NCBI GenBank assembly: GCA_965197645.1
Contig: OZ240219.1
Span: 2,016,001-2,080,000, forward strand
DNA from: Dehalococcoidia bacterium
Lineage (GTDB): Bacteria; Chloroflexota; Dehalococcoidia; Plut-88900
Length of the DNA: 64,000 nucleotides
Reading direction: 5' to 3'
Part shown: positions 2 to 25,009 of the stretch, one piece after another
Numbering within the stretch: the first letter of the stretch is position 1
Layout of the letters: the number at the start of each line of letters is the position of its first letter
Made by a program: the position numbers and the translations under genes
Notes under the pieces: generated by a model
What the model saw: only the letters and a program-made list of their open reading frames with translations
Told to the model about the DNA's origin: nothing
Databases searched by the model: none

Positions 2-3000
2 GAGCATCCTCTCGTCCGCGGTGCAGATGGCCCCGTCGGCGTCGCAGTCCGTGGTTGCCGGGAGTTCGATGGTCACGTCGGCGGCCGAGTCGGGCGTCAC
101 GGTGATGGTCCACCCGATGTTGCTTCCCTGGGTCAGTCGCTTGGCTTTGTTCACCGTGCCACCCGTGACGCTGAATGCGTGGTCTCGCAGCGTCACGTAG
201 CTGATGCCGAACCCCTCGCTGAAGCGCAGCTCGAAGGTGAAGGCGGTCTGGCCGTCGTGGATGTTTGGTACGTTGCTGAAGCTGGCGGTAAGCGGCGTGG
301 GCTTCGCCGTCACCGCCTTCGTCGCCGCGCTGGTCAGAGATTCTGCATTGCCAGCGTCGTCGGTGAAAGTCACCCGCACCCTGATGGTCTGCCACTGCTC
401 GCTGGAGGTGAGGGTGTAGGTGGAACCGGTGGCCCCGCCGACGTCCGAGCCTCCGGCAATCCACTGGTAGCCGTAGGAAACGTCGTCCAGGCCGTCCTGG
501 TCGGCGATGCCCGACGTTGAGGTGGTGAGGGTCTCGCCCACCTGCAGCGTGCCACCGATGGCCGGGGCGCCCGTGGCCGGGCTATTGCCTTCCGGCACCG
601 CTTCCACCTGGTCCGTCGCCGCGCTGGTCAGGGATTCCCTGTTACCGGAATCGTCGGTGAAAGTCACCTGAACCTGGATGGGTTGCCCCTGCTCGCTGGA
701 CGTGAGCTCGTAACTGGAGCCGGTGGCCCCGTCGATGTCCGACCCGTCGGCGACCCACTGGTAGCCGTAGGAAACGTTCGACAGCCCGTCCTGGTCTGCG
801 ATGCCCGACGTTGACGCCGTCAGGGTCTGTCCCACCTGCGGCATTCCGGTGATGGTGGGAGTTCCCGTGGCATCACGGTTGGGTGCCGCCGCCACCTCTT
901 CGGTCGCATCGCTGCCCAGCGATTCGATGTTGTTCCGGTCGTCGGCGAATCTCACCCTTACCGTTACGGTCTTTCCCTGCTCGCTGGCGGTGAGGGTGTA
1001 GGTGGAGCGGTTGGCCCCGATTATGGTCAGGCCCCCGGCCCTCCACTGGTAGAAGAAGGTGGCGTTGGTTATCCCGTCGAGGTCGGAGATGTTCGAGGTG
1101 TCCGCCGTTAGCGTCTGGCCCACGCGGGCCGTACCGTCGATGGTGGGCTTGCCAGTGGCTTGACGGTTGGGCGCCGCAATCACCGCGCCCGTCGCATCGC
1201 TGGTCAGGGACTCCTGGTTGTCAGCATCGTCGGTGAATGTCACCCGTACCTTGATGGTCTTGCCAACATCATCATCCGTCACCGTGTAGGCCGAGTCCGT
1301 TGCATCCTCTATCTCCGTGTCGGATACCCCGTCGTTCCGGACCCACTGGTAGCTGTAGGAAACATCGTCCAGCCCGTCCTCGTCGGTGATGCCGTTGGTG
1401 AGGGCCGTCAGCGTCTCTCCCACCTGGGCCGTCCCGCCGATGGTGGGCTGGCCCGTGGCCGGGGTGTTCTCGGCTGGCTCAGTCACTCTGACGGCGACCT
1501 CTTTCCCCTCCGGTAAGTTTAGTCCCGGGTCGTTCCACTGGAACTGGATGATGGAGATAGAGTCCCCCTCCAGGGTCGATGCGTCGGTAGAGGCGAATTC
1601 GTCCGTCCCAACCACCAGGACAAAGTCGGCAGTCAGTTTTGGCATCACCGAGAGAATCAGCTTGCCGTTCAGAACCCCCAGGGCCCTGACGGTGTAGCTG
1701 GCGTCGTCCGACGTGATGGTGTCGGGCGAGAGAGCACCCAAAGTGTTGGTTTCCGGCGAAGACAGGAATGTCGTATAGCCGGCAAAATTCTCTCCGATCT
1801 CCACCGTCAAGGTCGCCGCCCATATCGGTTCTTCCTGTGGTATTCCAGAGGCTTCGGCCGAGGTGGGAACGCCAAACACCCAAGGTCGGGCCTGTTTGAT
1901 GGATAGGACGTCGTCGCTGGTGATCTTGAACTCGATCTCCATTGCGAAGGGTTCGTCGGGTCCGGGGTTGTACAGACCCTCGAAATGGTCATGGATATCT
2001 TGGAGATGCCGGCGCAACTGGCCAATTTGAGCATCGCTCATGAGGAGTTGTCCTTTTGGCGCCTGGTTGGAGGTCACCAGGGTGGTGTATGAACCGGACA
2101 GGTCCAGCAGGATCTCCTCGGGCACCGAGTGTGCGTCGGGATTGGTGACCAGGTCCTCGCCGAGTTGCGTGTTGACGTAGTAGCTCCCCTTTGTTCCGTA
2201 GATAGGGTCGAAGCTGACGGCCACGCCGTTGGCCAGCTCGTCCGAGTAGTTGGGATGGACCAGCACCCCCATCGCCGTCGCCAGGTGGTCGATGCGGTGG
2301 AACTCGCGTTCAGTGAAGGCCCGGAAGTTCCACAGGCTGGCCCACACCCCTTTGATGGACTTGTCGATGCCGTCCTCGTCCGTCTCCTCGGGGTCCTGGG
2401 TCTTGGAGTCGTACAGCCCAGCGCCGCTGAAGCCCGGCAGGTCTTCGTTGTTTGTGCTGGACCGGTAGCGCAGGGATTGCCCTTCGGGGTAGCTGGCGTG
2501 CATCTCCTCCAGTGCGTCGATGATCCAGTCGGGCGTCTCCCCATTCTTGATCTTCTTGCGCAGTTTCTTGAGTTCTTTCTCCTGGATGTCATAGCCCGAC
2601 TGGAAGTCCGGGTCTTCCAGCATCTCCTCTACCTCGTCATAGAACCCGTTGTGCTTCATGAACCCGTCGTAGAAGTAGAAGGGCACCGCAAACCCGTCGG
2701 GGACGGTTCCGTCGGGAAAACCCAGGGTCCGCAGCACGGCCACGTTGGCCGCCTTGACGCCGAACGCATTCCAGTCGTCGAAGCCGATGTCGTCCAGGTC
2801 GGTGATCTGGGTGACCGTGAGGTCCCGTTCCGGCGTCTGGGTTCCGTGAGGGCGCGAAGCGGCGAAATAGGCCTCGACTTCGGCGGGAGTGGCGGCGCGG
2901 ATGGAATAGCCGTCCGCCGTGACGCTGTAGTGGACGTATCTGCCGATGAGATCATCGATGTCGCCGTCGTCTAGGGCGTCGCGAATGAAGGCGTTGGGGA

Positions 3001-6000
3001 CACCGTCCTGGACGGCCCGCAGGTTGACGTGGGAGAGCGGTGTCTGGGGTACGGTGGTGATGAGACCAGCGACCCGGGCAAGCTCGTTGGGGATAGTCTC
3101 GTAGATCACCACGTCGCGCGGGTCGGGGCGTTCCTCCAGCGACATGAGCCTGAGGAAACCGTACCCTTCCCCAAGGTTGAGGGGGAGGAATGGAACATCT
3201 GGCAGGATGTCCTCTCTCAACACCACATTGATCCGGGAATCGTCGTAGAGGGCCCGTTCTTTGTGATAGAGCGGCAGGGCTCTCCTCGGCATCGGGTAGT
3301 AGGCAAGGTTGTCATCAAGCAGCGGCATGCTGGCAGCAAGCGCCTCATACGAACGGGCCACATCGCCGAAGGGGTATTCATCCATGGGCTGGAACTGGTA
3401 GCGGTAGACGCCAAGGGAACCATCGGGAGCAATCACATTGGGGTGGTATATGATCTCGCCGCCCATGTACCCCTGTCCCCAGAGGGGGTCCTCCCAGAGA
3501 CCGATTGCATCCCCGAAATCGGGATGTATTCGGTGGGTCTCGGTGTTTATGAAATAGATGCCCATGTTGTCGGCAGACGAGCCGATAATGTAGAACTTGA
3601 CAAACTCCAGGTCCTGGAGATGGCGGTGATAGGGAACGTCTCTGCCCTTGTAGGAAAGCGCCTCAAATGCCTCACGGTCTGGAATGGCCACCGCGCCATC
3701 TCGAAAAGGGACCGCCCTAGCGGGGTTCAGCGGGTTCATCCCCACCGGGTCCCCCAATTCGGTGATGTCGTCGATGCAGTCGTTGTCGATGTCGCCAGGG
3801 TCGGCGATGAGGAACTTTTCAACCCGGTAATGCTCCTTGGGGAGCGGGTACAGCTGCTCGGTCAACGTTGTTGTGCCGTCTTCGCCCAGGGTCACCGAGA
3901 CCGAGAACTCTCGTTCGGAGTCCAGGTCGGGCCGCACGTAGAGCACGAAGTACTCCTCGGTGGTGGACTCGATGATAGCGGGAACGGCTTGTACCTCTAC
4001 CGCCGTTGCCGCCGGGGCCTGATCGCCGACAGTACACGCCACGACTGATACCTTGACCGTCCTCTGACTGGTAAGCGCCTCCAGGCTGCCTCCATCGTCA
4101 TAGAACGACACCCGCACGCTAATGGTCTTGCCAAGGTCAGCCATAGCCAGGGTGTAAGTCGAAGCCGTCGCCCCTTCGATGTCGGAAAAACTGCTCTCGT
4201 GGTGGCTGCGGACCCACTGGAAACTGAACGCGTCATCGTCGAGCCCGTCGGGGTCGTCGATCCCGGACACGACCGCCGTCAGCGATTCGCCGACTTCGAC
4301 GGTGCCGCTGATGACGGGCGCTCCTGTCGCGGCACGGTTGGCGCTCACCCTGAGAATCCTGTCGACACCGGGTTTGTTGGAGGTGGCGATGTACAGAGCC
4401 CCGTCGGGGCCGAGAACCGGGGTCCGCAGCCGGCCCTGGCTGCCGTCGAGCTCCGGAACGACGATCTGACTTACGAAATCGCCCTGTTCGGTGAACTCGA
4501 AGACCCGGAGCGACTTCGTCTTGAGGGTGGCCACCGCGAGTCGCCCTTCCCACTCCCCCCATTGGAGGCCGTCCAGGAAGACGGCCCCGCTGGTTGCCAG
4601 AGTGGGGAATCCCGAGGACCATCTGGCCTGGCGGGCAGATGGGAACTTCGCCAGGTCGGTCATGGGGACGCCGGCCTCGTCGGAATAGTCGTAGAAGGCC
4701 AATGTGCCGTCGTCCGGGATCGGGTCCCAGCCGTAGTTGCCCCCCGGCGCCAGCAGATTGATCTCGTCGTCGTGTTTCGGGCCGTGCTCCACCAGCCACA
4801 TCTGGTCCGTGCCCGGGCGCAGCGCCAGGCCCTGGGGGTTGCGGAATCCGTAGGAGTACACCGGCGAGGAGGCGCCGAACGGATTGCCCGGCGCCCCGGC
4901 GCCCGTCCGCGGGTCGACGCGCAGGACCTTGCCGCCCAGGGACGTCAGGTCCTGCGCGCCCGTTACCACCCGCCCGTCGCCGGTCACGATCCAGAGATAT
5001 CCCTCCGGGCCGAACACCAGCCGGCCTCCCGAGTGCCAAGGGCCCGGACCGATCGGTATGCCCTCCACCAGGGGATCGACGACGCGTGTGGCTTCGTCGT
5101 AGTTCGCGTCGATCGTCCAGGCGATCACCTGCATCTCGCGTCCGGTGTGTCCCTGGAGCGTGTAGAACCGCCGGTTGGTCGTAAAGTCCGGGTCCACGGC
5201 CAGCGCCTGCAGACCGGCGAACCCGTCGACGAGCAGGTCTCCGAGGTCCGCGTCGACCTGCTTGACGGTGCCGTCGGTCAGCCTCGCGTTCAGCACGCCG
5301 GCGCGCTGGGTGAACAACATCGTCCCGTCTGGGGTGAAATCGATGCCCCAGGGGTGGGACAGGCCCCTAACGATTACCGTCACCGTCAGTTCCGGACCCG
5401 GTTCGCGGGCGCCCACGACGGCGGTCGAAACAGCCTGAGCGGACTTGCCGGGGCCGTGCCCGTCGGTGTACGACGCCTCGGCCCTGAGCAGCATCTCTTC
5501 GTCTTCTTCGGTTGGAACGTAGCTGTCTCCTTCGCCGTAGGCCTCGACGCCGGTCCAGGTGGTTCCGTCAGGAGACCTGGCCCAGCTCCACGAAACCGCC
5601 CCGAGGGACGCCGCGGGACCCGAGCCGCCGCCTTCGAGGCCGTCGGGATCGGTCAGCGTGGCGCTGACCACCGTCCCGACCCTGGGTCTCGCCGGAAAGA
5701 GCGAAACGGTTCCGGGCCGGTCCTCCGCCTTGAACGCCTCGACCGCCGCTGTGGCCTCGCTGGTCAGCGTTTCATAGTTGCCGCGGTCGTCGACGAACGC
5801 CACCCGCACCTTGACCCGCTTGCCCAGATCCTCGGCGACGAGCGTGTAGGTGGGCGAGCCGCTCCCGATGTTCGTCTCGGTCGCGCCGTCGATCCGCAAC
5901 CACTGGTACGAGTAGGTCGCGCCTGTCAGCCCGTCGTCGTCCGACACGTCGGAGACCGCCGCGGCGAGCGGCCGCCCCACCCGCGCCGTGCCCGTGACCG

Positions 6001-9000
6001 TCGCCTCGCCGGCGGCCGGGTTGTTGATGAAGGAGCCGCGCACCTCGATCTTGTAGGAAAACGCGTCGGAGGCCCATCCCTGGTCGGCGGCCTGAGAAGA
6101 ATATGTCACGCTTCCGTCCGCGATGGACCACCCCTCCGCGGCTCCTGTGTCTTCGGAGCCGCTCGCCGTTCCACTGACGGCGATGGCGCCGGAACCCGTG
6201 GCGCGGATCCTTTCGACTACCACGAAATAGGTCGTCTCTTTCTCGAGAACCGGGCAGGTCGTCCCCGAGGCTGGAGCGGCAAAGGTGTTCACGCTCCGCT
6301 CCGACAGGCTCGCCGGGGCGATCAGCGTGCAGAGAGCGTCGCCCGGGACGCCGCCGTCGTCCGCGTTGAGCGTCACCTCGAGGTCGGACGGCGCGGACGA
6401 CGTGTCCGAAACTTCGCCGAACCCGATCCCGACGGACGCCAGCGCGTAGCCGGCTCTGCTGGTCCCGGTGGTGAACGCCTGGGCCCTCTTCGCGCCGGCC
6501 GAGCCCAGGTCGTGGCCGGCGCCGCCGGACTGCCCCGTGTTGCCGACCAGCACGGCCGCGGTCTCCGCGTCTTCGACGGAGGGCCGAACGACTCCGCTGA
6601 CGCCATGATAGGTGTAGATCATGTTGTCGTCGGCGTCGACAACGTAGAAGGTCTCCCCGTTCGACCAGATGCCGTAGGCGTGGTCGTTGTCCTCGTGGAG
6701 CGTAAAGTCGAAACCGGCTTCGGTTCCGTCGGACAGTTTCACGCTCGGCACCGAGGCGTCGTTCGAGGCGAACCTGACGCCCCACATCGTCCGCCCGTCG
6801 GTGAAGAGGCCCCTCAGCTGGCCTCTGCCGGGGATCGTCAGCTTCCGGGAGGTGTCCGGCCTCCCGTATTCGTCCTCCGGCGTCTCCGGGTCGTCGAACA
6901 GACGGAAGGCGTGCGCGTGCGACGTGGTGTTTGTGATCCACATGTGACGGCCGTCCGTCGCCATGCCGCGCACGATGAACACTCCCCCGGCGACGTTCAA
7001 ACCCCCGTAGACAAAGTCCCGATCTTCCGCCCGCGTGAAACTCGTCAGATCGTAGCCGAAGACATCTCGGCTGGCGCCGTCAAGGGACTCTTCGGCGACG
7101 TACAGGCGGGGGCCGTGACCGGTGACGTAATGGTCTTCCTGGCCGAGGCTCGGAACGTCCCAGCCGGGGTCCCGGGTCCCGTACTCGTTGACCGCGGTGG
7201 CGGGGTTGTCCCACAGCTTGTAGGCAAAGACCTTCCGGGCGCTGCTGTCGCCGACCCACAGCGTTTCGCCGTCGGACCAGATGCTCTTCGGGTCCGCGTT
7301 CTCCGGATGCAACGCAAAGGGTCCATCCTGGATCCATTCCCTCTGAACTAATGGTCTGCCGATCCACATAAGCATGGCGCTGCCGCGGCCGGCGCGGATG
7401 CCCGACGCTGAACCCCCGGAAGGCAACAGAAAAGCAGCGGAGTCGATCTCCACCGTGACGGGATGAGACCCGTGCGCACCAACCTCGATAACGTCCGAAT
7501 ATGAACCGCCAGCGGCGATGGTGACTGTCTTGGTGGACAGATCTCCGTTACGGGCCGACAGTTCGATCTGAAGATCGAACGGCGTCGCGCCTTCGGCCAA
7601 TCGGACCATGACCGTGTCGTCTCCCCGACGCTCCAGCTCCGCGGTGAACTTGAAAGGCGAGCCCGGATTGTCGCCCGCGTCAAGAGCCGTCAGCCCCGAC
7701 AGACCTTCGAAGACGCCGACAGGCAGGTCCTTGAGCTCGTTTCCCGAAAGGTCCAGCTCAGTAAGACTCCCGAGGTCGGCGAACACGTCCTCCGGCAGGC
7801 TCTTCAGGTCGTTCCCCGCGAGGGAGAGACTCTGCAGGTCGCCGAGACCGCCGAAGACCCCTTCCGACAGTTCGGGGATCTCGTTGATCGACAGGTCCAG
7901 GCCGCGCAACTCAAGATTGCGGTCGAACACCCCGTCAGGCAGTTCGTCAATGAAGTTGCCCGACAGATAGAGCTCCTCCACCGCCCGGAGGTCTTGGAAG
8001 AGTCCGTCCGGGACCGTCCCGAGGAAGTTTCTGTTCAGGTCCAGGGCGCGCAGCGCGTTCAGGTCCCGGAAATCACCGGCCTGCAGGGCCGACAGTCCTC
8101 TCCCCTGAAGGTACAGCCCGGGCGTGACGTCGGGGCCGAAGTGCTGGGAGCCGGTCCAAGTCCTGAGCCTCGTCTCGGACACCTCCGAGCAGTCGCCGAC
8201 GCCGGTCATCCCGGCGACGATGGCCGCCATCACCGAAGGCGTCCGGTCGCAGATGCCGGGGGCGCCGACCCGACCCGTCGGCTCGCTGGTAAGCGACTCT
8301 TGGTTGCCGGCGCCGTCGGTGAAGGACACCCTGACCTTGACGGTCCTGTCCCGGTCACCGGAGACGATGGTGTAGGTCGAATCGGTAGCGCCCGCGATGT
8401 CAGTGTCGGCGTTCCCGTCGTTCGAAATCCATTGATATTCGAAGCTGGCGGCGTCCAGCCCGTCCGCGTCGACGATGGAGCGGGTGCCCGCCGCCAGCGT
8501 CTCGTCCACTCGGACCGCGCCGGTTATCGTCGGCGCTCCCGTCGCAGGATTGTTCCAGTCGTATGCGTAGAGCTTAGCGTCGTCGCGGGACGCGACCCAC
8601 ATCGTGGACCCGGCCGACCAGATGTCCTCGTAAGATTCATCGTCGGCGTCCAACGCGAAGTCCTTGCTGCCGTCCCAGCTCCGGTCCGACATCCGGTAGG
8701 CGTACAGCTTGGCGTCCCGCCAGTCCGAAACCCACATCGTGGATCCGTTCGACCAGACGCCCATAGGAGAGTCGTGGCCGGGGGCCAGCGTGATGTCCTT
8801 CTCGAAGTCCCAGGCCCTGGTCGACAGGTCGTAGGCGAACACCGTGTCGTTGCCGGTGTCCGCCACCCACATGGTGATCCCGTCCGACCAGATGCCCTCG
8901 GGAAATTTGTTGCCGGCTGCAGAAAGCGTGTTGAAGTCCTTGCCCGAGTCCCGGCTCCGGTCGGACATCCGGTAGGCGTACAGCTTGGCGTCGGTGAAGT

Positions 9001-9322
9001 CCGACGCCCACATGGTTGTCCCGTCCGACCAGATGCCCACCGGAGAGCCGTTGGCGGCGTCCAGAGTGAAATCCTTGCCCGAATCCCGGCTCCGGTCCGA
9101 CATACGGTAGGCGTACAGCTTGTGATCCTCGAAGTCCGCGACCCACATGGTGGTCCCGTCCGACCAGATGCCGGTCGGATAGCCGTTGGCGGCGCCCAGA
9201 GTGAAATCGCTGCCGGAGTCCCGGCTCTGGGCCTGGACCTCAGGAGTGAGAAGCAGGGCGCCGAAGACCGCGAGTGCGATGAGCAGCAGCGGGAGCGGCG
9301 CCAGACGCCGGAATGAGATCAT
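2..9322 (-). CDS. Giant secreted multidomain protein, >=3107 aa, 3'-partial: beta-propeller repeats, LRR, PQQ-type aldose sugar dehydrogenase (GSDH) domain, water-dikinase-like module, 7 Ig-like repeats
   Basis: Manual translation from ATG at 9322 (MISFRRLAPLPLLLIALAVFGALLLTPEVQAQ, signal peptide). The frame at 9322 equals the frame at the window edge (...ICTADERML), and no in-frame ORF appears in the track, consistent with no stop inside the window. Motifs: GIWSDGTTMWV repeats (~8560-9230 and ~6610-7320); LRR LxxLxLxxNxLxxLPxGVF (~7670-8120); GSDH motifs HSGGRLVFGPEGYLW, YGFRNPQGL, EHGPKHDDEINL, GGNYGW (~4350-5390); LSHVNLRA and RSSTNNEDLPGFSGAGLYDS...KQARP (~1880-4000). Confidence 0.9.
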   Translation of the reverse strand, partial: MISFRRLAPLPLLLIALAVFGALLLTPEVQAQSRDSGSDFTLGAANGYPTGIWSDGTTMWVADFEDHKLYAYRMSDRSRDSGKDFTLDAANGSPVGIWSDGTTMWASDFTDAKLYAYRMSDRSRDSGKDFNTLSAAGNKFPEGIWSDGITMWVADTGNDTVFAYDLSTRAWDFEKDITLAPGHDSPMGVWSNGSTMWVSDWRDAKLYAYRMSDRSWDGSKDFALDADDESYEDIWSAGSTMWVASRDDAKLYAYDWNNPATGAPTITGAVRVDETLAAGTRSIVDADGLDAASFEYQWISNDGNADTDIAGATDSTYTIVSGDRDRTVKVRVSFTDGAGNQESLTSEPTGRVGAPGICDRTPSVMAAIVAGMTGVGDCSEVSETRLRTWTGSQHFGPDVTPGLYLQGRGLSALQAGDFRDLNALRALDLNRNFLGTVPDGLFQDLRAVEELYLSGNFIDELPDGVFDRNLELRGLDLSINEIPELSEGVFGGLGDLQSLSLAGNDLKSLPEDVFADLGSLTELDLSGNELKDLPVGVFEGLSGLTALDAGDNPGSPFKFTAELERRGDDTVMVRLAEGATPFDLQIELSARNGDLSTKTVTIAAGGSYSDVIEVGAHGSHPVTVEIDSAAFLLPSGGSASGIRAGRGSAMLMWIGRPLVQREWIQDGPFALHPENADPKSIWSDGETLWVGDSSARKVFAYKLWDNPATAVNEYGTRDPGWDVPSLGQEDHYVTGHGPRLYVAEESLDGASRDVFGYDLTSFTRAEDRDFVYGGLNVAGGVFIVRGMATDGRHMWITNTTSHAHAFRLFDDPETPEDEYGRPDTSRKLTIPGRGQLRGLFTDGRTMWGVRFASNDASVPSVKLSDGTEAGFDFTLHEDNDHAYGIWSNGETFYVVDADDNMIYTYHGVSGVVRPSVEDAETAAVLVGNTGQSGGAGHDLGSAGAKRAQAFTTGTSRAGYALASVGIGFGEVSDTSSAPSDLEVTLNADDGGVPGDALCTLIAPASLSERSVNTFAAPASGTTCPVLEKETTYFVVVERIRATGSGAIAVSGTASGSEDTGAAEGWSIADGSVTYSSQAADQGWASDAFSYKIEVRGSFINNPAAGEATVTGTARVGRPLAAAVSDVSDDDGLTGATYSYQWLRIDGATETNIGSGSPTYTLVAEDLGKRVKVRVAFVDDRGNYETLTSEATAAVEAFKAEDRPGTVSLFPARPRVGTVVSATLTDPDGLEGGGSGPAASLGAVSWSWARSPDGTTWTGVEAYGEGDSYVPTEEDEEMLLRAEASYTDGHGPGKSAQAVSTAVVGAREPGPELTVTVIVRGLSHPWGIDFTPDGTMLFTQRAGVLNARLTDGTVKQVDADLGDLLVDGFAGLQALAVDPDFTTNRRFYTLQGHTGREMQVIAWTIDANYDEATRVVDPLVEGIPIGPGPWHSGGRLVFGPEGYLWIVTGDGRVVTGAQDLTSLGGKVLRVDPRTGAGAPGNPFGASSPVYSYGFRNPQGLALRPGTDQMWLVEHGPKHDDEINLLAPGGNYGWDPIPDDGTLAFYDYSDEAGVPMTDLAKFPSARQARWSSGFPTLATSGAVFLDGLQWGEWEGRLAVATLKTKSLRVFEFTEQGDFVSQIVVPELDGSQGRLRTPVLGPDGALYIATSNKPGVDRILRVSANRAATGAPVISGTVEVGESLTAVVSGIDDPDGLDDDAFSFQWVRSHHESSFSDIEGATASTYTLAMADLGKTISVRVSFYDDGGSLEALTSQRTVKVSVVACTVGDQAPAATAVEVQAVPAIIESTTEEYFVLYVRPDLDSEREFSVSVTLGEDGTTTLTEQLYPLPKEHYRVEKFLIADPGDIDNDCIDDITELGDPVGMNPLNPARAVPFRDGAVAIPDREAFEALSYKGRDVPYHRHLQDLEFVKFYIIGSSADNMGIYFINTETHRIHPDFGDAIGLWEDPLWGQGYMGGEIIYHPNVIAPDGSLGVYRYQFQPMDEYPFGDVARSYEALAASMPLLDDNLAYYPMPRRALPLYHKERALYDDSRINVVLREDILPDVPFLPLNLGEGYGFLRLMSLEERPDPRDVVIYETIPNELARVAGLITTVPQTPLSHVNLRAVQDGVPNAFIRDALDDGDIDDLIGRYVHYSVTADGYSIRAATPAEVEAYFAASRPHGTQTPERDLTVTQITDLDDIGFDDWNAFGVKAANVAVLRTLGFPDGTVPDGFAVPFYFYDGFMKHNGFYDEVEEMLEDPDFQSGYDIQEKELKKLRKKIKNGETPDWIIDALEEMHASYPEGQSLRYRSSTNNEDLPGFSGAGLYDSKTQDPEETDEDGIDKSIKGVWASLWNFRAFTEREFHRIDHLATAMGVLVHPNYSDELANGVAVSFDPIYGTKGSYYVNTQLGEDLVTNPDAHSVPEEILLDLSGSYTTLVTSNQAPKGQLLMSDAQIGQLRRHLQDIHDHFEGLYNPGPDEPFAMEIEFKITSDDVLSIKQARPWVFGVPTSAEASGIPQEEPIWAATLTVEIGENFAGYTTFLSSPETNTLGALSPDTITSDDASYTVRALGVLNGKLILSVMPKLTADFVLVVGTDEFASTDASTLEGDSISIIQFQWNDPGLNLPEGKEVAVRVTEPAENTPATGQPTIGGTAQVGETLTALTNGITDEDGLDDVSYSYQWVRNDGVSDTEIEDATDSAYTVTDDDVGKTIKVRVTFTDDADNQESLTSDATGAVIAAPNRQATGKPTIDGTARVGQTLTADTSNISDLDGITNATFFYQWRAGGLTIIGANRSTYTLTASEQGKTVTVRVRFADDRNNIESLGSDATEEVAAAPNRDATGTPTITGMPQVGQTLTASTSGIADQDGLSNVSYGYQWVADGSDIDGATGSSYELTSSEQGQPIQVQVTFTDDSGNRESLTSAATDQVEAVPEGNSPATGAPAIGGTLQVGETLTTSTSGIADQDGLDDVSYGYQWIAGGSDVGGATGSTYTLTSSEQWQTIRVRVTFTDDAGNAESLTSAATKAVTAKPTPLTASFSNVPNIHDGQTAFTFELRFSEGFGISYVTLRDHAFSVTGGTVNKAKRLTQGSNIGWTITVTPDSAADVTIELPATTDCDADGAICTADERML

Positions 9323-9596
9323 GACTCACCCCCTGCTAGCCAAGTGAAAGAAGCCGGGAGGGTGAACCTCTGTGCTAGCCCATCGTTGGCGGAAGTCCCC
9401 GGCGCGACCGGTGCAGCGACGGCTCGTGCCGTCCGCCGTCTCAGGTGCATGAACCGATCTGTAGAGCGTCATGTCAATGCTTCCTCTGAACGAGCGGGAT
9501 GAGCGGAGCCTACGGCCCCCCATGCTGTCCCCACGTAGAGTGGCAGCCTGTGATTCCGCCCATCCTGTGAGCCTTCTGGCACGTTTACCCATGAAA

Positions 9597-9641
9597 ACCC
9601 TAGTGCCTCTTCAAGGCTTTGGTAAGTGTCTAATCACACTC
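9597..9641 (-). promoter_or_regulatory. Shared sigma70-type promoter copy 1 (-35 TTACCA / 17 bp / -10 TAGGGT) with overlapping GTG-N8-CAC palindrome
   Basis: -10 at 9597-9602, -35 at 9620-9625, palindrome AAGTGTCTAATCACACTC at 9624-9641. Homologous copies at 15412 and 21541. Confidence 0.65.
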
Positions 9642-9789
9642 TCGGGACGGCAAAAGTGTTAGCTCTGAGAGAGAGAGTGTTTCTGCGACTTTTTCACTCT
9701 TGCCGGCATAAACGAAAGTCAGGCACACGCTACCGGAACGTATCCGGACCGGGAGAGGCCGCTGCTCTCTCCCCCGGCCACCCGCATAC

Positions 9790-9932
9790 GAGCGTGTCTC
9801 AAAAGTACGGATGTCTTGGTCCCAACCGCCCGCCCTCGGAAGGTTTTGTAGCTGGGGGAACATCCCCCAGGCCCCCTGCCAGAGGGAAGGTTCCCTCTGG
9901 ACTCTCTCAAAGCAGGGTTCTGAGACAGGCTC
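9790..9932. mobile_element. 143-bp MITE copy 1
   Basis: Imperfect 15-bp terminal inverted repeats GAGCGTGTCTCAAAA / TTCTGAGACAGGCTC, flanked by a 4-bp direct repeat ATAC. Near-identical copies at 15667 and 51971. Confidence 0.9.
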
Positions 9933-9982
9933 ATACGCGGGCTTTTCTGTTGCCAGAAAGATCTTGCGACTGACTTCCCTCT

Positions 9983-19464: not shown

Positions 19465-21432
19465 TCATAGCCCGCCCATTACCACCGCTGACGTTCCCTC
19501 ACTGGTCAGCGACTCCGCGTAGCCCGCGTCGTCGGTGAAGGTGACCCGCACCTTGATGACCTTGCCGTTTTCAGATGCCTGGACCGTGTAGATGGAGTTC
19601 GTCGCGTCGTTGATCTCGGTGTCGTCGGCCAGCCACTGGTAGCTGTACGTCACGTTAGTCAGCCCGTCGGCGTCAGAGATTCCGGACGTGCCTGCCGTCA
19701 GGGTCTGGCCCACCTGCGCAGTGCCGCTAATGTTGGGAGCGCCGGTTGCCGGAGTGTTGGCATGCGACGCAGACGAGAGGGTGAGGCTATCGCCAAGGCC
19801 GGTCTGGATGCCCTGGTATGAACCCCCCAGGAAGGCGGAGGCAACCACGGAGACCGTCACGCCGTCGTCATCGCTTATCGGGGAGGTGATGACACCGCTC
19901 GCCTGATCGCCGCCGTTTACGGAGACGATCAGGTTGGAAGAAAGCGCCCCGGCCTTGAAGTTCAGGGTGACCGACATGTTGAAGGGCGCTCCCTCGGCGA
20001 CCTTGACCACCACGCCGTTGTCGCCCCGCTGCTCCAGCTCTGCGGTGAACGTGAAGGGGGACCCCGGGTTGTTCGCCAGGTAGAGGATTTCCAGGTTTCC
20101 AAGGTCCTGAAAAATCCCATCGGGCAACGCGCTCAATTTGTTGTTGGTGAATATCAACCTGTCGAGGTTGGTGAGGCCGTCGAACAGGTCCTCGGGCAAT
20201 GCAGTAATCGGGTTGGTGGAGAGCACTATGTTTTCCAGGCTGTCGAGGCCATCGAAGATGTCTTCGTCCAGCTCACTTAGCTGGTTGTTGTGCAGACGCA
20301 GGTCCGTTAAGCTGCTCAGTCCGTCGAATACCTCCTTGTGCAGCTCCCTTATCTGGTTAGTTCCCCCCAAGGCCAGGATCTGCAGGCTGGTCAGTCCGTC
20401 GAATACGTCCTCGGGCAGTGCCGTCAGGTCGAGGAACAGGTACAGCCGTTGCAGATTGCCGAGTCCCTCGAATACGTCCTCGGGCACCGACCTGATATAG
20501 GAGGAGCCGGTCGGTTGAAGCCACGTCATGGAGCTGAGTCCAGCAAAATCCCCGGACTTGATGGACGTGGCGCTTGTGAAGCTGACGACCAACTTGGTTA
20601 TGCCGGCCAGGTGTGAGTCGGTGACATTGGCGCAGTCGCTGACGTCGGACAGCTTGGCGAGAATGGCGTCCCGCACTTCCTGGGTCCGGCCGCAGATGCC
20701 CAGAGGAGCGGCCAGGGTGAGTTCAAGATCGTCGGCCTCCTCCCACGTGAGGCCAAAGTAGCTTGAATAGTCGGTGGCGCCGAAGTCGGAGGACTCCACG
20801 CTCACTGTTACCTGCACGTCGGCGGTCTGTACCAGGCTCTGGTCGCTGGGCGAGACGCTGACTGACTCGCTCTTGAGGCTGCCTCCCTCAACTGTGACCG
20901 TCGTCGAGGACAGTGTGCCGCCTTCGGCGGACAGCGTGATTTCCATGTCGAAGGGCGCGCCCTCGGCGACCTTGACCACCACCGAGTTCGAGCCCTCCTG
21001 CTCCAGCGTCATCGTGAGGCTGAAGGGAGACCCCGTATTGAAGTTCAGCCACAGGGTGTCTAGGCTTTCGAGGCCCTCGAAGATGCCGTCCGGTAGGTCG
21101 CTCAGGTCGTTGGTGTCGAGGTAGAGCTGCTCCAGGCCGCTCAGCCCCTGGAAGTCTCCGGCCTTGAGCGCAGAGATGCTCTTGTTGGAAAGGGTCAGGT
21201 CGCCCGTTATGCCCGCCAGGTGTGAGTCGGTGACATTGGCGCAGTCGCTGACGTCGGACAGCTTGGCGAGAATGGCGTCCCGCACTTCCTGGGTGCGGTT
21301 GCAGATGCCGGAAGACTGGGCGAGGACCGTACTGCTCGGCGGGACGGCCATTGAGACGGCAACGACGGCCGCCACCAGCAGGGCCATTGCCGCCACGGTC
21401 TTGATTCGCAGTTTGGGTCTTCGAAACCTCAT
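19465..21432 (-). CDS. Secreted LRR + Ig-like repeat protein ending in -MGGL
   Basis: Signal peptide, two GICxRTQEVRDAIL-capped LRR modules, one TGAPxISGTAQVG repeat. Confidence 0.9.
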   Translation of the reverse strand: MRFRRPKLRIKTVAAMALLVAAVVAVSMAVPPSSTVLAQSSGICNRTQEVRDAILAKLSDVSDCANVTDSHLAGITGDLTLSNKSISALKAGDFQGLSGLEQLYLDTNDLSDLPDGIFEGLESLDTLWLNFNTGSPFSLTMTLEQEGSNSVVVKVAEGAPFDMEITLSAEGGTLSSTTVTVEGGSLKSESVSVSPSDQSLVQTADVQVTVSVESSDFGATDYSSYFGLTWEEADDLELTLAAPLGICGRTQEVRDAILAKLSDVSDCANVTDSHLAGITKLVVSFTSATSIKSGDFAGLSSMTWLQPTGSSYIRSVPEDVFEGLGNLQRLYLFLDLTALPEDVFDGLTSLQILALGGTNQIRELHKEVFDGLSSLTDLRLHNNQLSELDEDIFDGLDSLENIVLSTNPITALPEDLFDGLTNLDRLIFTNNKLSALPDGIFQDLGNLEILYLANNPGSPFTFTAELEQRGDNGVVVKVAEGAPFNMSVTLNFKAGALSSNLIVSVNGGDQASGVITSPISDDDGVTVSVVASAFLGGSYQGIQTGLGDSLTLSSASHANTPATGAPNISGTAQVGQTLTAGTSGISDADGLTNVTYSYQWLADDTEINDATNSIYTVQASENGKVIKVRVTFTDDAGYAESLTSEGTSAVVMGGL

Positions 21433-21540
21433 AGCTCCCCTCCTAGGTCAGGGACAGGTCCTGCGGCACAACTACCCTTACTTTGAGTGGGGTGCCAGCC
21501 TTAAGCTCCGCCTGTCAGCTGATCGGTATTGCCCATGAAA

Positions 21541-21585
21541 ACACTAGAGACCCTGCATCGATTTGGTAAGTGCATAATCACACTT
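21541..21585 (-). promoter_or_regulatory. Shared promoter copy 3 (-35 TTACCA / 17 bp / -10 TAGTGT) with AAGTG-N8-CACTT palindrome
   Basis: -10 at 21541-21546, -35 at 21564-21569, palindrome at 21568-21585. Confidence 0.65.
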
Positions 21586-21980
21586 CTTGCTGAGGTAATT
21601 TGGACGGCACTTTGTTTGTTCTGAGGGAGAGTGTTTCTACAACTTTTTGCTCTTGATGGCATAGACGAAAGTGGCTTAGATTTAGTAGTCATAACCACAC
21701 CGCCGTCACACTCAATGTTCGCACGCGCATACCGGAGAAGAGATGTCTCAGGCACATTGCCGAAGCCGGGCCTTCAGTCTTGCGAAGCTGGCGTACCGGC
21801 CTGCGGGTTGGCTGGAGGGCTACGCCGTGTATGCGCCGCTATTCCAGGTGCAAAGGCCGCGGGTAGGCCAGCGCGAGGTTGTTGCGACAGGCCCGCCGGC
21901 GGACAGTTCTCATCTATTGGGGCTCCGGCGTCGCCTCACACCAGGGGTAGGTTGGGTGTTGGAGTAGGGGCCTGTACTTT

Positions 21981-23198
21981 ATGAAGGCATCGTTCGGCGC
22001 AATACAGACGCGGCTCCTCCAGATGCTCTGGCTCGACCCGGACGAGGCATCGTACGCCGCCAACATTACGGTGTGGTTACGCTGGCTCTTCTGGGTCGGC
22101 GCCGTGATCGAGCTCGCCTATCGACCGGCGTTCACGCATGCCAAGTACATTCCGTTCATGCTCATGCACGTGCCGCTGGTCGCACTCAACGGCTACGTGC
22201 ACTACCGTCTGCTCTCCCGGCGCAGGGTGACGTGGCGTCACCTGCTACTCCTCAGCGCCATGGACATAGCCCTGATCACGGCCAGCGTCGTCGTCGACGG
22301 GGGTTTCGACAACTTCCTGTACATTCCCTACTATCCCGCCCTCGCCGCTTTCGCCGCCGTCTTCACCTCCGCTCTGCTGAATCTCGCCTGGACCACGGTC
22401 ACCGCCTCCATATATGTCGGCGTGAGCCTGACCGTCGGCTCGGGCGTGGCCTTCGATGGGACCAACGAGAAGATGCTGTTCTCCAGGGTGCTCGCGATGT
22501 TCGGGGTGGTCATGGTTGTCAACTTCATCACCCGGTTTCAACGGCGCAGGGCCATAGCGGCGATGGAAAGGGAAGGGGAGCTGCAACGGGAACGGATCGA
22601 GCTCTCCCAGGCCATTCACGATACGGCCGCCCAGACCGCCTTCATGATCGGCCTGGGGATAGACGCGGCCAAACGGGTTGCCGGAGACTCGAACGAGGAG
22701 CTCACCGCCAGGCTCGATGCGACATCACGGCTTTCCAAGACCGCCGTGTGGCAGCTGAGACACCCGATAGACATGGGCCGCATATTCGAGGGCAGTGAGT
22801 TGGGCTGGACCCTGGACTCGCACGTTGCGACGTTCAGGTCCATCACGTCGGTGTCGGCGGAGCTGACCCAGAACGGGGTGGAGCCGCCACTTTCAGTAGA
22901 GGTCAGGAGTCTCCTGTTCTCCATTGCCCACAACGCCCTCGCCAACGCCTTACGCCATGCCGGGGCGAGCCGGGTGCTGGTCGGTCTCGACTTCGGACGG
23001 GACGAGCTCAGGCTGTCGGTGTCGGACGACGGGGTGGGACTTCCCGACGACTACGAGGAGCGGGGCCACGGCTTCGCAAACATGCGGGCGTACGCAGGGC
23101 GTCTGGGCGGACGCCTCATCGTCGAGCCCAGGGGAGCGGCAGGGGGCGCCAGCGTGACCTGCGTGATGCCGTTGGTTCGCGGCGGAAAGGAGGGATAG
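21981..23198 (+). CDS. Membrane sensor histidine kinase (HisKA_3/NarX-type)
   Basis: About 6 TM helices, H-box ELSQAIHDTAAQ, N-box ALANALRHA, G-boxes DDGVG and GHGFANM. Confidence 0.9.
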   Translation: MKASFGAIQTRLLQMLWLDPDEASYAANITVWLRWLFWVGAVIELAYRPAFTHAKYIPFMLMHVPLVALNGYVHYRLLSRRRVTWRHLLLLSAMDIALITASVVVDGGFDNFLYIPYYPALAAFAAVFTSALLNLAWTTVTASIYVGVSLTVGSGVAFDGTNEKMLFSRVLAMFGVVMVVNFITRFQRRRAIAAMEREGELQRERIELSQAIHDTAAQTAFMIGLGIDAAKRVAGDSNEELTARLDATSRLSKTAVWQLRHPIDMGRIFEGSELGWTLDSHVATFRSITSVSAELTQNGVEPPLSVEVRSLLFSIAHNALANALRHAGASRVLVGLDFGRDELRLSVSDDGVGLPDDYEERGHGFANMRAYAGRLGGRLIVEPRGAAGGASVTCVMPLVRGGKEG

Positions 23199-23199
23199 A

Positions 23200-23853
23200 T
23201 TGTCAGCGGAGTCTCGTCGCATAAGGGTGCTGCTCGCCGACGACCATGCGGTCACGCGGGAAGGGCTTCAGTCGATTCTGGAGCGGTCTGAGGAGTTCGA
23301 GGTGGTGGGCCAGGCCAGGGACGGAGTGGAGGCGGTGAAGGCGGCCTCCGAGTTGTCGCCCGACCTGATCGTCATGGATGTCATGATGCCCAGGAAGGAC
23401 GGGGTGGAAGCGTGCCGGGAGATCATGGAGTCTCTGCCGGACACACGGGTGCTCATGCTGACCGCCTCCACGGAGGCGAACGCCGTGATAGAGGCGGTGG
23501 CCGCCGGTGCGGCCGGCTATCTTCAGAAGGTGGCCGGGATGGACCAGGTCCTGGGCATGATGAGGAGCGCGGCTGCGGGCGAGGGGCGGCTGCCGACCGA
23601 GGTGGTGAGGCGCGTGTTCCACAGGATGCGGAGCGAGGCGAAGTCGAAGCAGCAGATCGACCTGACCCAGAGGGAGAAGGAGATACTTGTGTCATTCTGC
23701 CGGGGCATGTCCTACGTTGCGATTGCCAATGCACGAGAAGTCAAGGTGGTCACCGTCCGAAACGCCATCTACACCATTCAGGTGAAGCTGGGCCTCGACT
23801 CGAAGCAGGAGGTCGTGGTGTGGGCCGCGCAGAACGGGCTCCTGGATGATTGA
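23200..23853 (+). CDS. NarL/LuxR-family response regulator
   Basis: Receiver motifs LLADDH and VMDVMMP; C-terminal HTH beginning LTQREKEIL. Adjacent to the kinase. Confidence 0.92.
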   Translation: MSAESRRIRVLLADDHAVTREGLQSILERSEEFEVVGQARDGVEAVKAASELSPDLIVMDVMMPRKDGVEACREIMESLPDTRVLMLTASTEANAVIEAVAAGAAGYLQKVAGMDQVLGMMRSAAAGEGRLPTEVVRRVFHRMRSEAKSKQQIDLTQREKEILVSFCRGMSYVAIANAREVKVVTVRNAIYTIQVKLGLDSKQEVVVWAAQNGLLDD

Positions 23854-23908
23854 CGGCATGGGTTGGGCGTAAGGTCATTCGACCCAACCCCTGTAAAAGG
23901 ATTATTCA

Positions 23909-25009
23909 ATGAATCACTTCGTTTTGGATGCCAATACCGTGATTGCAGAACAGTACGGAGCTAGTGCTCACATAAGCGCTCTACTGTCTGCCTCAAGTGC
24001 CGTTGGGTTCCAAGTCCACCTCCTCAAGGTCGCCCTGGAGGAAATTGCCGCGAAATACGAAAGGGAACTGTCGAAGAATACGAAAGAAGCAGGCCGAAGT
24101 CTATCGAGACTGTCCTCGTTATTGGGTCGGTCTATAGAATCCCCCGTGGAGGGGTTCGATTCCAAGGAAGAAACAAAAGCATTTCGAGAGAGGTTGCTGA
24201 GCCATCTAGGTAAGACGGAGTCGGGTATCATCGATTATCCTGACACGCTCCACGAAACATTGGTCAAACGAGCGACATCAAGAAAACGGCCGTTTGACGA
24301 CAATGGATCTGGGTATCGCGCCGCGCTCATTTGGGAATCAGTTCTTGATTTAGCCAAACAAGTAGAGGGTCCAATTGTCCTGGTTACCAAAGACAAGGAT
24401 TTTCGGGAAGGGTCAAGTAACCTTCATGGTGATCTCATCAAGGATCTGGAAAGACTCGGGTTGCCTGAAGACAAGGTTATATTGGCTACGGACCTGGCGG
24501 GACTAGTTGACCAACACGTACGTCCTAATCTGGGAATGCTGCCTTGGGACGACCCACTCCAATTCTTGGCTCAACGTGGGGTCGACTTGGAGGAGTCCAT
24601 AGCACTGATTCTATTGGACGCTTGTTCAGGCAAAGAATGGGAGCCACCGGAGTTGGGAATTCCGTGGGAGTATGAATCCCCCACGTTGGACATGATAGCT
24701 GATGTATCCGGCTTGACCGTGTTGGACATTCGACAGTTGAATTCAAGTCAGGTACTGGTCAAGGTCGAGGCCAACGTCATCGCGGAATTTGGGGTGCTTG
24801 TTTACAAGCCTGATTGGTACACTTCGGAGGACAGCAGGCTTACCGTAGTTGAGTTTGATTGGAATGACCATTATGTTTGGGCAGAGATTCGCTTGCCACT
24901 ACACTGCAATCTCGACTTGGTCATTGACGCCTCGAACCCAGAACAACAAGAAGTTCGGAATGTGTCTGTCGAATTTCAACCTACAGAATTTCCACCTATA
25001 GATTGGTAA
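23909..25009 (+). CDS. PIN-like domain protein (DUF4935-like)
   Basis: FVLDAN, RKRPF...GYRAALIWES, LVTKDKDF. Visibly more AT-rich than its neighbours. Confidence 0.7.
   Translation: MNHFVLDANTVIAEQYGASAHISALLSASSAVGFQVHLLKVALEEIAAKYERELSKNTKEAGRSLSRLSSLLGRSIESPVEGFDSKEETKAFRERLLSHLGKTESGIIDYPDTLHETLVKRATSRKRPFDDNGSGYRAALIWESVLDLAKQVEGPIVLVTKDKDFREGSSNLHGDLIKDLERLGLPEDKVILATDLAGLVDQHVRPNLGMLPWDDPLQFLAQRGVDLEESIALILLDACSGKEWEPPELGIPWEYESPTLDMIADVSGLTVLDIRQLNSSQVLVKVEANVIAEFGVLVYKPDWYTSEDSRLTVVEFDWNDHYVWAEIRLPLHCNLDLVIDASNPEQQEVRNVSVEFQPTEFPPIDW

Follow-up and report, generated by a model that had tools for sequence, protein, structure and literature searches.

A conserved, putatively activator-dependent control region ahead of secreted-protein units, linked to a NarL/VraR-like kinase/regulator pair in a Dehalococcoidia bacterium

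Five transcription units in the genome of a Dehalococcoidia bacterium, probably a sponge symbiont, share one control region that is tied to a single two-component kinase/regulator pair, and the same layout is found in 8 genomes belonging to 5 families. Three of the five copies lie in the window (the whole stretch of 64,000 nucleotides analyzed). We propose, at a probability of roughly 60% given the sequence comparisons below, that each copy would act as an activator-dependent sigma-70-type promoter, that a NarL/VraR-like response regulator would be the activator, and that both descend from an inherited kinase-linked unit. The regulation is of an ordinary kind, in an interesting place.

Copies of the control region and the genes behind them

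The homologous blocks lie at window positions 9585-9719, 15400-15546, and 21529-21675 (copies 1, 2, and 3). A preliminary description of this DNA had reported three blocks of about 140 bp at these places, and both alignment and a search against the whole 3.2-Mb genome agree: copy 2 matches copy 3 at 81% (E 3e-34) and copy 1 at 77% (E 2e-23). The genome, a single contig that is 94% complete by marker genes, holds five copies and no others by nhmmer and regex scans. The fourth lies at contig positions 2015719-2015848, 152-281 bases to the left of the window, and the fifth at 1801334-1801445, outside it. The genome-wide motif scan that the preliminary description had suggested finds exactly these five, to which the 11-mer CACTTACCAAA is also confined. 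We take the minus strand as the functional one because all the downstream genes lie on it. The features are as follows, with starts predicted from their spacing to the -10 element.

9597..9625, minus: copy 1 predicted core promoter; -35 TTACCA at 9620-9625, 17-bp spacer, -10 TAGGGT at 9597-9602
G9590 (or A9592), minus: copy 1 predicted start
9626..9637, minus: copy 1 dyad GTG-N6-CAC, abutting the -35, centre about -41.5
9657..9719, minus: copy 1 upstream conserved block; GTCGCAGAAACAC..CTCTC..AGCTAACA, then CAAGAG..TTTATGCC
9326..9472, minus: copy 1 leader upstream reading frame, 48 codons; stop separated by 3 nt from the ATG of the giant ORF (9322)
2..9322, minus: copy 1 giant gene; at least 3107 aa with a signal peptide, continuing past the window edge; 45-aa repeats, LRR, GSDH, PPDK_N, Ig-like domains
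15412..15440, minus: copy 2 predicted core promoter; -35 TTACCA at 15435-15440, 17-bp spacer, -10 TACCGT at 15412-15417
G15405, minus: copy 2 predicted start
15441..15452, minus: copy 2 dyad GTG-N6-CAC
15484..15546, minus: copy 2 upstream conserved block
15131..15286, minus: copy 2 leader upstream reading frame, 51 codons; C9 tract at 15159-15167; stop separated from the main ATG (15115) by 15 nt, five codons in frame
9983..15115, minus: copy 2 gene; product of 1710 aa with a signal peptide, PPDK_N, and Ig-like repeats
21541..21569, minus: copy 3 predicted core promoter; -35 TTACCA at 21564-21569, 17-bp spacer, -10 TAGTGT at 21541-21546
G21534, minus: copy 3 predicted start
21570..21581, minus: copy 3 dyad GTG-N6-CAC
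21613..21675, minus: copy 3 upstream conserved block, between two predicted back-to-back promoters
15862..21432, minus: copy 3 unit, four genes
19465-21432, minus: LRR protein, 655 aa, in the copy 3 unit
18462-19403, minus: 313-aa protein, in the copy 3 unit
17077-18402, minus: LRR protein, 441 aa, in the copy 3 unit
15862-16938, minus: 358-aa protein with weak Cache-domain matches, in the copy 3 unit
21653..21682, plus: candidate kinase-operon promoter, divergent; -35 TTGATG at 21653-21658, 18-bp spacer, -10 TAGATT at 21677-21682; expected start about 21689
21981..23198, plus: sensor kinase; HisKA_3 and HATPase_c domains preceded by 5-6 membrane helices, predicted by eye
23200..23853, plus: response regulator; receiver domain and GerE/LuxR helix-turn-helix

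Homology exceeds 140 bp. It extends into a transcribed leader of 100-520 nt and takes in promoter, leader, and signal peptide together; at copies adjoining the kinase operon it also runs upstream as far as the operon's start. Among 401 sampled genomes of the class Dehalococcoidia, 8 genomes spread over 5 families hold 26 copies. Signal-peptide ORFs of 421-4706 aa follow 15 of the 18 copies first examined, and such ORFs follow 6 of the 8 further ones, in keeping with the earlier suggestion of a shared promoter-like region before secreted-protein units; a convincing downstream secreted ORF is missing at two copies in the first set and two in the second. The downstream domains are of adhesion type (LRR, cadherin, Ig-like, propeller), and the five units, with about 10,000 codons in all, take up roughly 1% of this genome. 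No intrinsic terminators were found at the unit borders on the minus strand.

Four RNA libraries from a single sponge study yield contigs that fall on these genes. One, at 14469-15282, bridges the start of the 1710-aa ORF and 167 nt of its leader and ends short of the predicted copy 2 start at 15405; being assembled contigs, these data cannot show starts or strand, such libraries can contain DNA, and neither depth per bin nor uncovered parts are usable as evidence.

Promoter core, dyad, and linked regulator

All 26 copies keep TTACCA and the 17-bp spacer, and 25 keep TAnnnT. Within the -10 element the A and the last T are invariant while the three middle bases vary, giving 9 different hexamers among the 26 copies. 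Conserved T-12, A-11, and T-7 around a variable middle form the known sigma-70 -10 pattern, and by this conservation the core is predicted to be a sigma-70-type promoter. The three window copies all carry TTACCA, the exact spacer, and TAnnGT, as first described, and the second upstream block described with them is real and conserved across copies. That block contains TTG-N6-CAC, similar to the dyad next to the promoter.

Abutting the -35 is the dyad GTG-N6-CAC, invariant in 26 of 26 copies and centred at about -41.5 relative to the predicted transcription start; its arms are only 3 bp long, and the right one is inseparable from the -35. The preliminary description had instead picked out a palindrome, AAGTG-N8-CACT(T/C), to be judged by whether it was better conserved than its flanks. 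It is present in the three window copies, but the GTG-N8-CAC core of AAGTG-N8-CACTT occurs in only 21 of the 26 and is broken in 5, and the left arm is conserved no better than the spacer. The 12 bases GCACTTACCAAA, together with a GTG six bases upstream, are conserved far above their flanks, and conservation there surpasses what a -35 needs. Against the E. coli TTGACA/TATAAT consensus the promoter matches at 7 of 12 positions, and a sigma-70 consensus scan of 9200-22100 returned no sites, missing the copies; both fit, and the weak match suggests, a weak promoter that depends on an activator.

The NarL-type kinase/regulator pair divergent from copy 3, already put forward as a candidate, gains strong support from linkage in all 8 genomes. 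An intact divergent pair stands beside 10 of the 26 copies, with at least one in each genome, and remnants of kinase or regulator stand beside 6 more, so that linkage is kept or remnant at 16; the other 10 copies have no kinase or regulator trace within the flank examined. Among the 401 genomes of the class, kinase sensor domains of at least 66% identity occur only in 7 of the 8 that hold the element, always beside a copy, and the next best matches reach at most 51%. The regulator is 79-94% identical wherever it is readable in full, a range that still holds in genome G009, where the neighboring kinase sensor is only 39% identical. Pfam confirms the domain make-up of a HisKA_3 kinase with a receiver-GerE regulator. 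The closest solved relatives of the regulator in the PDB are VraR (E 9e-36), DevR, and NarL, and no NCBIfam equivalog reaches its cut-off. The TTG and TAGATT of the candidate kinase-operon promoter are conserved among the copies adjoining that operon.

From these patterns we infer a mechanism in which each block would control a transcription unit encoding giant secreted proteins with adhesion-type domains. The TTACCA-17 bp-TAnnnT core would probably fire poorly alone, and an activator would bind the invariant GTG-N6-CACTTACCA, overlapping the -35. The likeliest activator is the regulator encoded at 23200-23853, presumably phosphorylated by the membrane-embedded kinase at 21981-23198. In an ancestral unit, back-to-back promoters may have separated the regulator and kinase from the leader and giant secreted gene; duplication of the unit and decay of the extra pairs would then have left five promoters under one intact pair.

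Some of this conservation may have a simpler source. The kinase is 96% identical between different families, which points to a recent transfer of the whole island. Part of the conservation between genomes would therefore reflect youth rather than selection, and the linkage of promoter to kinase pair could be hitch-hiking. An ordinary constitutive promoter with no dedicated regulator might then look conserved through duplicated gene heads and island transfer alone, as would suit the patchy distribution of the copies, their 72-89% DNA identity, and the joint homology of promoter, leader, and signal peptide. We consider this unlikely. The fixed positions persist at a divergence of 19-25% between paralogous copies within one genome and of about 33% between the most distant copies, and the spacers adjoining these positions are scrambled, with 11-13 bp indels; the promoter is weak by consensus, and the kinase/regulator linkage survives, intact or as remnants, at 16 copies.

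Alternatively, the invariant CACTTACCA might serve as a -35 recognized by an alternative sigma factor (ECF-like or other), instead of being an activator site laid over a housekeeping -35. Strict -35 elements are typical of alternative sigma factors; the nine invariant bases at -38 to -30 resemble them, and the element is limited to five promoters in the genome. The -10, however, is the housekeeping TAnnnT, whereas ECF -10 motifs are of the CGT or GTC type, the window ORFs scanned include no sigma factor gene, and the linked factor is a two-component pair, all of which makes this reading improbable.

Several smaller candidates were also dropped. A sigma-54 reading of GGCAC..GC fails on a GG that is not conserved and a spacing that is off by one, and the ATG four bases past the -10 is not a conserved protein start, as its frames stop after 10-88 codons in different places. 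Between the two paralogous kinase operons of the genome, shared sequence is limited to short co-linear words, for example ATGGCATAGAC (E 0.08), too weak to count as common sites. Separately, the distances from upstream block to dyad are 71, 59, 61, and 58 bp, with indels of 11-13 bp that lie near one helical turn; any helical phasing would involve few independent events.

A reading frame in the leader

In most of the long leaders an upstream reading frame, about 50 codons in length, is conserved. It is preceded by GGAGG and 7 nt and starts with ATG in 9, GTG in 4, TTG in 1, ATA in 4, and ATC in 1 of 19 copies; in 7-8 of the 19 it ends in an ATGA overlap with the start of the giant gene. A poly-C tract of 3-13 or more C encodes consecutive prolines, from 3 to 8 or more in number. 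The N-terminal half is the conserved part, codon 26 stays GCN while all four bases occur at its third position, and the synonymous share is 0.47 in frame vs 0.29 and 0.18 in the other frames, the copy pairs being non-independent. The databases also contain 36 homologues of the frame that share a consensus; these unnamed entries, already predicted by gene callers, make up a leader peptide family. The synonymous share, codon 26, and the homologues indicate constraint at the protein level.

The conservation runs more than 250 nt beyond the -10, and a few compensatory changes occur in some hairpins, so the conserved thing might mainly be RNA, either a structured leader or a small RNA, with the true promoter further upstream. 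We give this reading only a slim chance. Rfam has no match at gathering score anywhere in the window; folding energies are no better than those of shuffles in 10 of 11 leaders (z from +1.6 to -1.3, with -3.85 in the other); RNAalifold yields -7 kcal/mol and 1 compensatory pair; and two hand-named hairpins pair in 84% of cells vs 82.7% in shuffles, 15 of 500 of which score as high. A structured leader was dropped as the main reading on these results. The best conserved part of the leader behaves instead as coding sequence, and what precedes copies 1 and 2 is a dispersed repeat rather than a better promoter. One stretch of the leader may resemble the ops element, and processive antitermination by a NusG paralogue was considered for such very long genes; the genome has only one NusG-like gene, and the idea was dropped.

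The activator-dependent promoter and the leader frame might be joined in a mobile two-layer expression cassette for host-contact proteins, a tentative extension that we regard as possible but, taken whole, doubtful. In the first layer, the membrane-sensing kinase/regulator pair would gate the weak promoter. In the second, the polyproline codons of the leader peptide would double, as poly-C, as an anti-ribosome-binding site of the giant gene; in about 7 of 11 predicted local folds, poly-C is paired with the ribosome-binding site of the main gene. If ribosomes paused on the prolines, to a degree set by EF-P or proline supply, the start of the giant gene might open, and poly-C slippage might shift the end of the leader frame between an ATGA overlap and a stop short of the start, making the coupling phase-variable, on or off. 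The cassette of promoter, leader, and signal peptide would have been reused before a variety of adhesin bodies and moved among unrelated Dehalococcoidia with a common host.

Relation to known systems

VraSR, LiaRS, DesKR, and NarXL have the same make-up as the pair described here, with HisKA_3 and HATPase_c in the kinase and a receiver and GerE helix-turn-helix in the regulator. VraSR and LiaRS respond to cell-envelope stress, and such NarL/LuxR-family systems control neighboring genes and themselves. The likeness extends to a kinase with membrane helices and no large outside domain (by eye) and to adjacent targets. In contrast to those systems, the putative targets here are giant secreted repeat proteins rather than genes for envelope repair or respiration, and the promoter has been multiplied five-fold together with its leader.

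Class II sites of CRP/FNR promoters are centred at -41.5 and overlap the -35, and here too a dyad abuts a weak -35 with its centre, given the predicted start, at about that position. The preliminary description had assigned the region to CRP/FNR-family activation; its geometry near -42 stands for the N6 dyad, given that start, while the protein identity does not. HTH_Crp_2 (PF13545) has no match in the genome, whereas the same search succeeds in 14 of 14 control genomes, and the only cNMP-binding protein (PF00027) is fused to a TIR domain, as carried by Pycsar defense effectors, and has no DNA-binding domain. The palindrome TGTGA-N6-TCACA is also absent: 22 of 26 copies have the left half, TGTGA, but in place of TCACA the right half resembles ACTTA. 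Class II activation by a CRP/FNR-family protein at GTG-N8-CAC draws on the dyad position and on the 21 copies with that spacing, and it is very improbable in a genome with no such protein and a site whose N8 arm is broken in 5 copies and whose N6 arm never is. At most, the control region may resemble class II activation in its working, with arms of GTG and CAC spaced by N6, without being a member of the class.

Leader frames of a comparable kind are known from translational attenuation of the erm/cat type. In Salmonella, the mgtCBR and mgtA leaders are reported to have proline-codon frames and upstream frames that unmask a ribosome-binding site (PMC3641672, PMC5299641, PMC6460261, PMC8092293). 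The likeness lies in a short upstream frame with consecutive prolines, a long leader, and a large gene, in a frame that ends at or near the main start, and in poly-C complementary to the G-rich ribosome-binding site of the main gene. The phylum, peptide, and genes differ here, as do the length of about 50 codons, the conserved N-terminal half, and the partial occurrence of the ATGA overlap, and no terminator was found for the leaders described here.

Sponge symbionts are uncultured. Eukaryotic-like proteins have been catalogued in them, for example, as reported, in sponge Chloroflexi (PMC6306507), and LRR, cadherin, and Ig-like domains likewise occur in this bacterium. In the literature searched, at the level of titles and the first parts of abstracts of the top-ranked matches, the genes themselves are catalogued and nothing on the control of such surface proteins was found, whether a shared promoter, a kinase pair, or a leader frame; the motif strings matched only unrelated primers and the leader-peptide word had no matches. 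The control region gives concrete access to the question of how symbionts might switch on host-contact proteins, and whether these proteins are regulated becomes testable at the bench from sequence, without culture. It also marks a transferable island common to unrelated symbionts.

An element shared by secreted-protein genes

Searching this genome (G000, contig C1) with copy 2 as query (15400-15546) returned five strong matches, itself included (E-values 4e-72 to 2e-22), which bore out the preliminary description of three homologous blocks in the window and added two copies outside it. A profile search and regex scans found no sixth copy in the whole 3.21-Mb single contig, and in a whole-genome scan CACTTACCAAA was confined to the five copies. 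The neighbouring long genes all lie on the minus strand, and the blocks are therefore to be read in reverse complement.

Copies of the element in this genome and the genes behind them
9585-9719, copy 1, 77% identity to copy 2; behind it 2..9322, minus, at least 3107 aa, running off the window, signal peptide
15400-15546, copy 2; behind it 9983..15115, minus, 1710 aa, signal peptide
21529-21675, copy 3, 81% identity to copy 2; behind it 15862..21432, minus, a unit of four genes, two encoding LRR proteins
G000:C1:2015719-2015848, copy left of the window, 76% identity to copy 2; behind it a cadherin-domain protein of 2016 aa, then a second one of 953 aa
G000:C1:1801334-1801445, 1.80-Mb copy, 95% identity to copy 2 across 112 nt; behind it a signal-peptide protein, 1630 aa

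The copy 1 ORF contains 45-aa repeats and LRR, GSDH, PPDK_N and Ig-like domains. Other eukaryote-like giants in the window, a 1181-aa ankyrin and RCC1 protein (31245-34790) and a 2593-aa transglutaminase/HEAT/Ig protein (38074-45855), are without the element, and the gene set behind it is therefore a specific one, not one that takes in such proteins in general. On their upstream side, copies 1 and 2 adjoin a dispersed 160-nt repeat with two perfect hairpins (9787-9946 and 15664-15823; 93% identity between the sites), which is separate from the promoter and has 107 BLAST matches in this genome at 82-97% identity.

A BLAST search of 61 relatives showed three more genomes to carry copies, and extending it to 401 genomes of the class brought the total to 26 core copies in eight genomes of five families (five each in G000 and G009, four each in G002 and G037, three in G133, two each in G084 and G374, one in G331). 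A ninth genome, G349, has only the downstream leader module and no core copy. Signal-peptide ORFs of 421-4706 aa follow 15 of the first 18 copies, with a 164-aa ORF behind one and none behind two; of the other eight, read from 3-kb loci only, six have signal-peptide ORFs behind them. The element is 72-89% identical in DNA among families. Its patchy spread over five families, together with kinase identity of up to 96%, suggests transfer of an island between them.

Across the 26 copies, TTACCA and a spacer of exactly 17 bp are universal. The -10 hexamer reads TAnnnT in 25 and takes nine different forms; its A and last T are unchanged throughout while the middle three bases vary. The palindrome fared differently from what had first been proposed: the GTG-N8-CAC frame holds in 21/26 copies (T or G is altered in three G037 copies, one G084 copy and one G002 copy) and, its left arm being no better conserved than the spacer, does not stand. 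CACTTACCA is invariant, as is a GTG six bases upstream of CAC, so that a shifted GTG-N6-CAC dyad, present in 26/26, takes its place; it is centred at -41.5 if transcription starts, as predicted, 7 nt after the -10. Farther out, the upstream block GTTGCAGAAACAC..CTCTC..AGCTAACA is strongly kept across copies, as the preliminary description had it, at 71 (seven copies), 59 (seven), 61 (one) or 58 (three) from the dyad in the first 18. The promoter matches the E. coli consensus at 7/12 positions, and a consensus promoter scan of 9200-22100 returned zero sites; it appears to be weak, as activator-dependent promoters are. The reading as a weak promoter of sigma-70 type, flanked by conserved sites and shared by secreted-protein units, is largely correct.

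Two features were noted around this core. In three copies, a segment of the upstream block (GCAGAAACA..) is tandemly duplicated directly upstream of the full element (G000:C1:1801449-1801499 and, in locus coordinates, L031:15754-15804 and L056:1759-1849). Four nucleotides past the -10 there is an ATG in 14/26 copies and a CTG, GTG or TTG in six more (in the window, 9560-9592, 15375-15407 and 21500-21536, minus strand). In many long-leader copies this ATG opens a 10-codon frame (MGKCVRRITR-like) with TAA or TAG at a constant place, which could be a leaderless mini-frame or merely the start-site region.

A proline-rich reading frame in the leader

Homology extends 100-520 nt beyond the -10, into the leader between promoter and giant gene. 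The leader matched no known RNA family, its folding stability was not unusual and covariation gave no support for a structure; what is best conserved in it is a reading frame. In an alignment of 19 of the 23 leader-module matches (the partial L041, L052, L057 and L062 were omitted), GGAGG stands 7 nt ahead of a start-like codon (ATG in nine, GTG in four, ATA in four, TTG and ATC in one each), and the encoded peptide opens with MALDRPVHAPETADGT.AP.AVAAP. Of the single-base differences, 47% are synonymous when read in this frame vs 29% and 18% in the two alternative frames, counted over pairs that are not independent, and every one of the four third bases occurs at codon 26, a GCN codon. The frame ends at, or up to 17 nt upstream of, the main start in 14/19; a TGA overlapping the main ATG ends seven, or eight counting G349d. 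Three frames read on for 78-86 codons, G349d among them, one has no stop within the sequence retrieved, one terminates 11 nt short of an ATG inside a copy-specific insertion separating the frame from its giant gene, and for one the main start could not be placed. The frame is absent from the short leaders of copy 3 and of the copy left of the window.

A public protein collection holds 36 homologues of the leader peptide, unnamed and 38-84 aa long; 33 of them (omitting P0011, P0013 and P0033) give the consensus MALDRPVHAPETADGTTAPAVAAPLASGFAAYGGLAQMFTPPPP..DFWPRLAGGRS. The proline run is a poly-C tract of 3 to at least 13 C, and the ribosome-binding site and ATG of the main gene form the frame's last codons. 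Local folding pairs the C tract with this ribosome-binding site in about 7/11 copies, which suggests coupling or attenuation by the proline-rich frame, as reported for the Salmonella mgt leaders.

RNA libraries labelled sponge metagenome contain sequence of this stretch: 25-31% of sampled words were present in four libraries of one sponge study. Contigs over 5000-24000 fall on all genes, with strand and starts not readable and DNA possibly present. An 805-nt contig spanning 14469-15282 covers the start of the 1710-aa ORF and 167 nt of leader, and would fit a long 5' leader, no more. In the leader frame of copy 2, contigs depart from the window sequence by one or two bases in or beside the C9 tract (15159-15167; G9 on the plus strand) and also at or beside a GGGG run (15134-15137); these may be strain differences or tract slippage, which look the same in contigs.

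The divergent kinase operon and the candidate binder

An intact kinase/regulator pair (in the window, HisKA_3 sensor kinase 21981-23198 and NarL/VraR-like response regulator 23200-23853, both plus strand) lies divergently beside 10/26 copies (tblastn, query 21981-23853): window copy 3, two copies each in G133 and G009, and one each in G002, G037, G374, G331 and G084. Six more copies have kinase or regulator fragments beside them (the 1.80-Mb copy, G009c, G037a, G037c, G002a and G133 L052). All eight element-holding genomes have at least one intact neighbouring pair, and the earlier nomination of this pair gains support. Kinase residues 1-200 found relatives in 56/401 genomes; sensor matches of at least 66% identity are confined to seven of the element-holding genomes, each lying beside a copy, and the others reach at most 51%. 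One neighbouring kinase in G009 has a sensor only 39% identical beside a regulator 92% identical, and in G331 the values are 41% and 96%, the latter over residues 1-55 of the regulator, the only part of it in the locus; the promoter is tracked more closely by the regulator than by the sensor. The regulator's nearest relatives are VraR, DevR and NarL, no NCBIfam equivalog matched kinase or regulator at cut-off, and the kinase, read by eye, has five or six hydrophobic helices without a large outside domain. The neighbouring regulator is much more likely to bind the element than a CRP homologue. The CRP/FNR-family activation initially proposed was not borne out, and such a factor was rejected as binder, since HTH_Crp_2 has zero matches in this genome (14/14 control genomes were positive) and the sole cNMP-binding protein carries a TIR domain. 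That 302-aa protein (G000:C1:2003412-2004320; L037:3412-4320), 12 kb left of the window, combines cyclic-nucleotide-binding and CAP12/Pycsar-type TIR domains and is likely an anti-phage effector.

The element is an ordinary kind of regulation. Its interest lies in its targets, in having been multiplied along with leader and signal peptide, in its patchy five-family spread and in the unnamed leader peptide; titles and abstract openings of the top-ranked papers in literature searches contained no description of the element, its linkage to the pair or the leader peptide.

In the ten copies beside the kinase operon, conservation extends upstream as far as the operon. On the kinase strand CTCTTG contributes an invariant TTG, followed 17-18 bp on by TAGATT and, after about 60 nt, by GGAGAGGAG and an ATG.

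Candidate divergent promoter, proposed from conservation
21653-21682, plus, candidate kinase-operon promoter; ATG at 21743

The second upstream block, conserved as first described, would thus in part be the -35 region of this divergent promoter. It is also kept in copies without the kinase pair, and so would serve the giant gene's promoter too.

Several details of the operon vary. About 205 nt (21743-21980) separate its RBS and ATG (21743) from the kinase start (21981); G374, G009a and G331 are without this segment, and in them the same opening residues are joined straight to the kinase. The segment is common to six copies and measures 320-390 nt in three; in this genome it reads as a 74-codon frame with its stop 13 nt before the kinase ATG. 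The match of the kinase at the G002 copy (L026:15006-16219) is split in two, covering residues 1-315 and residues 330-405 separately and suggesting a small deletion or a frameshift. Upstream of two paralogous kinase/regulator operons (G000:C1:1985442-1986142 and 2956138-2956838), short words such as ATGGCATAGAC are co-linear with the copy 3 intergenic region, which hints at a family-wide promoter layout.
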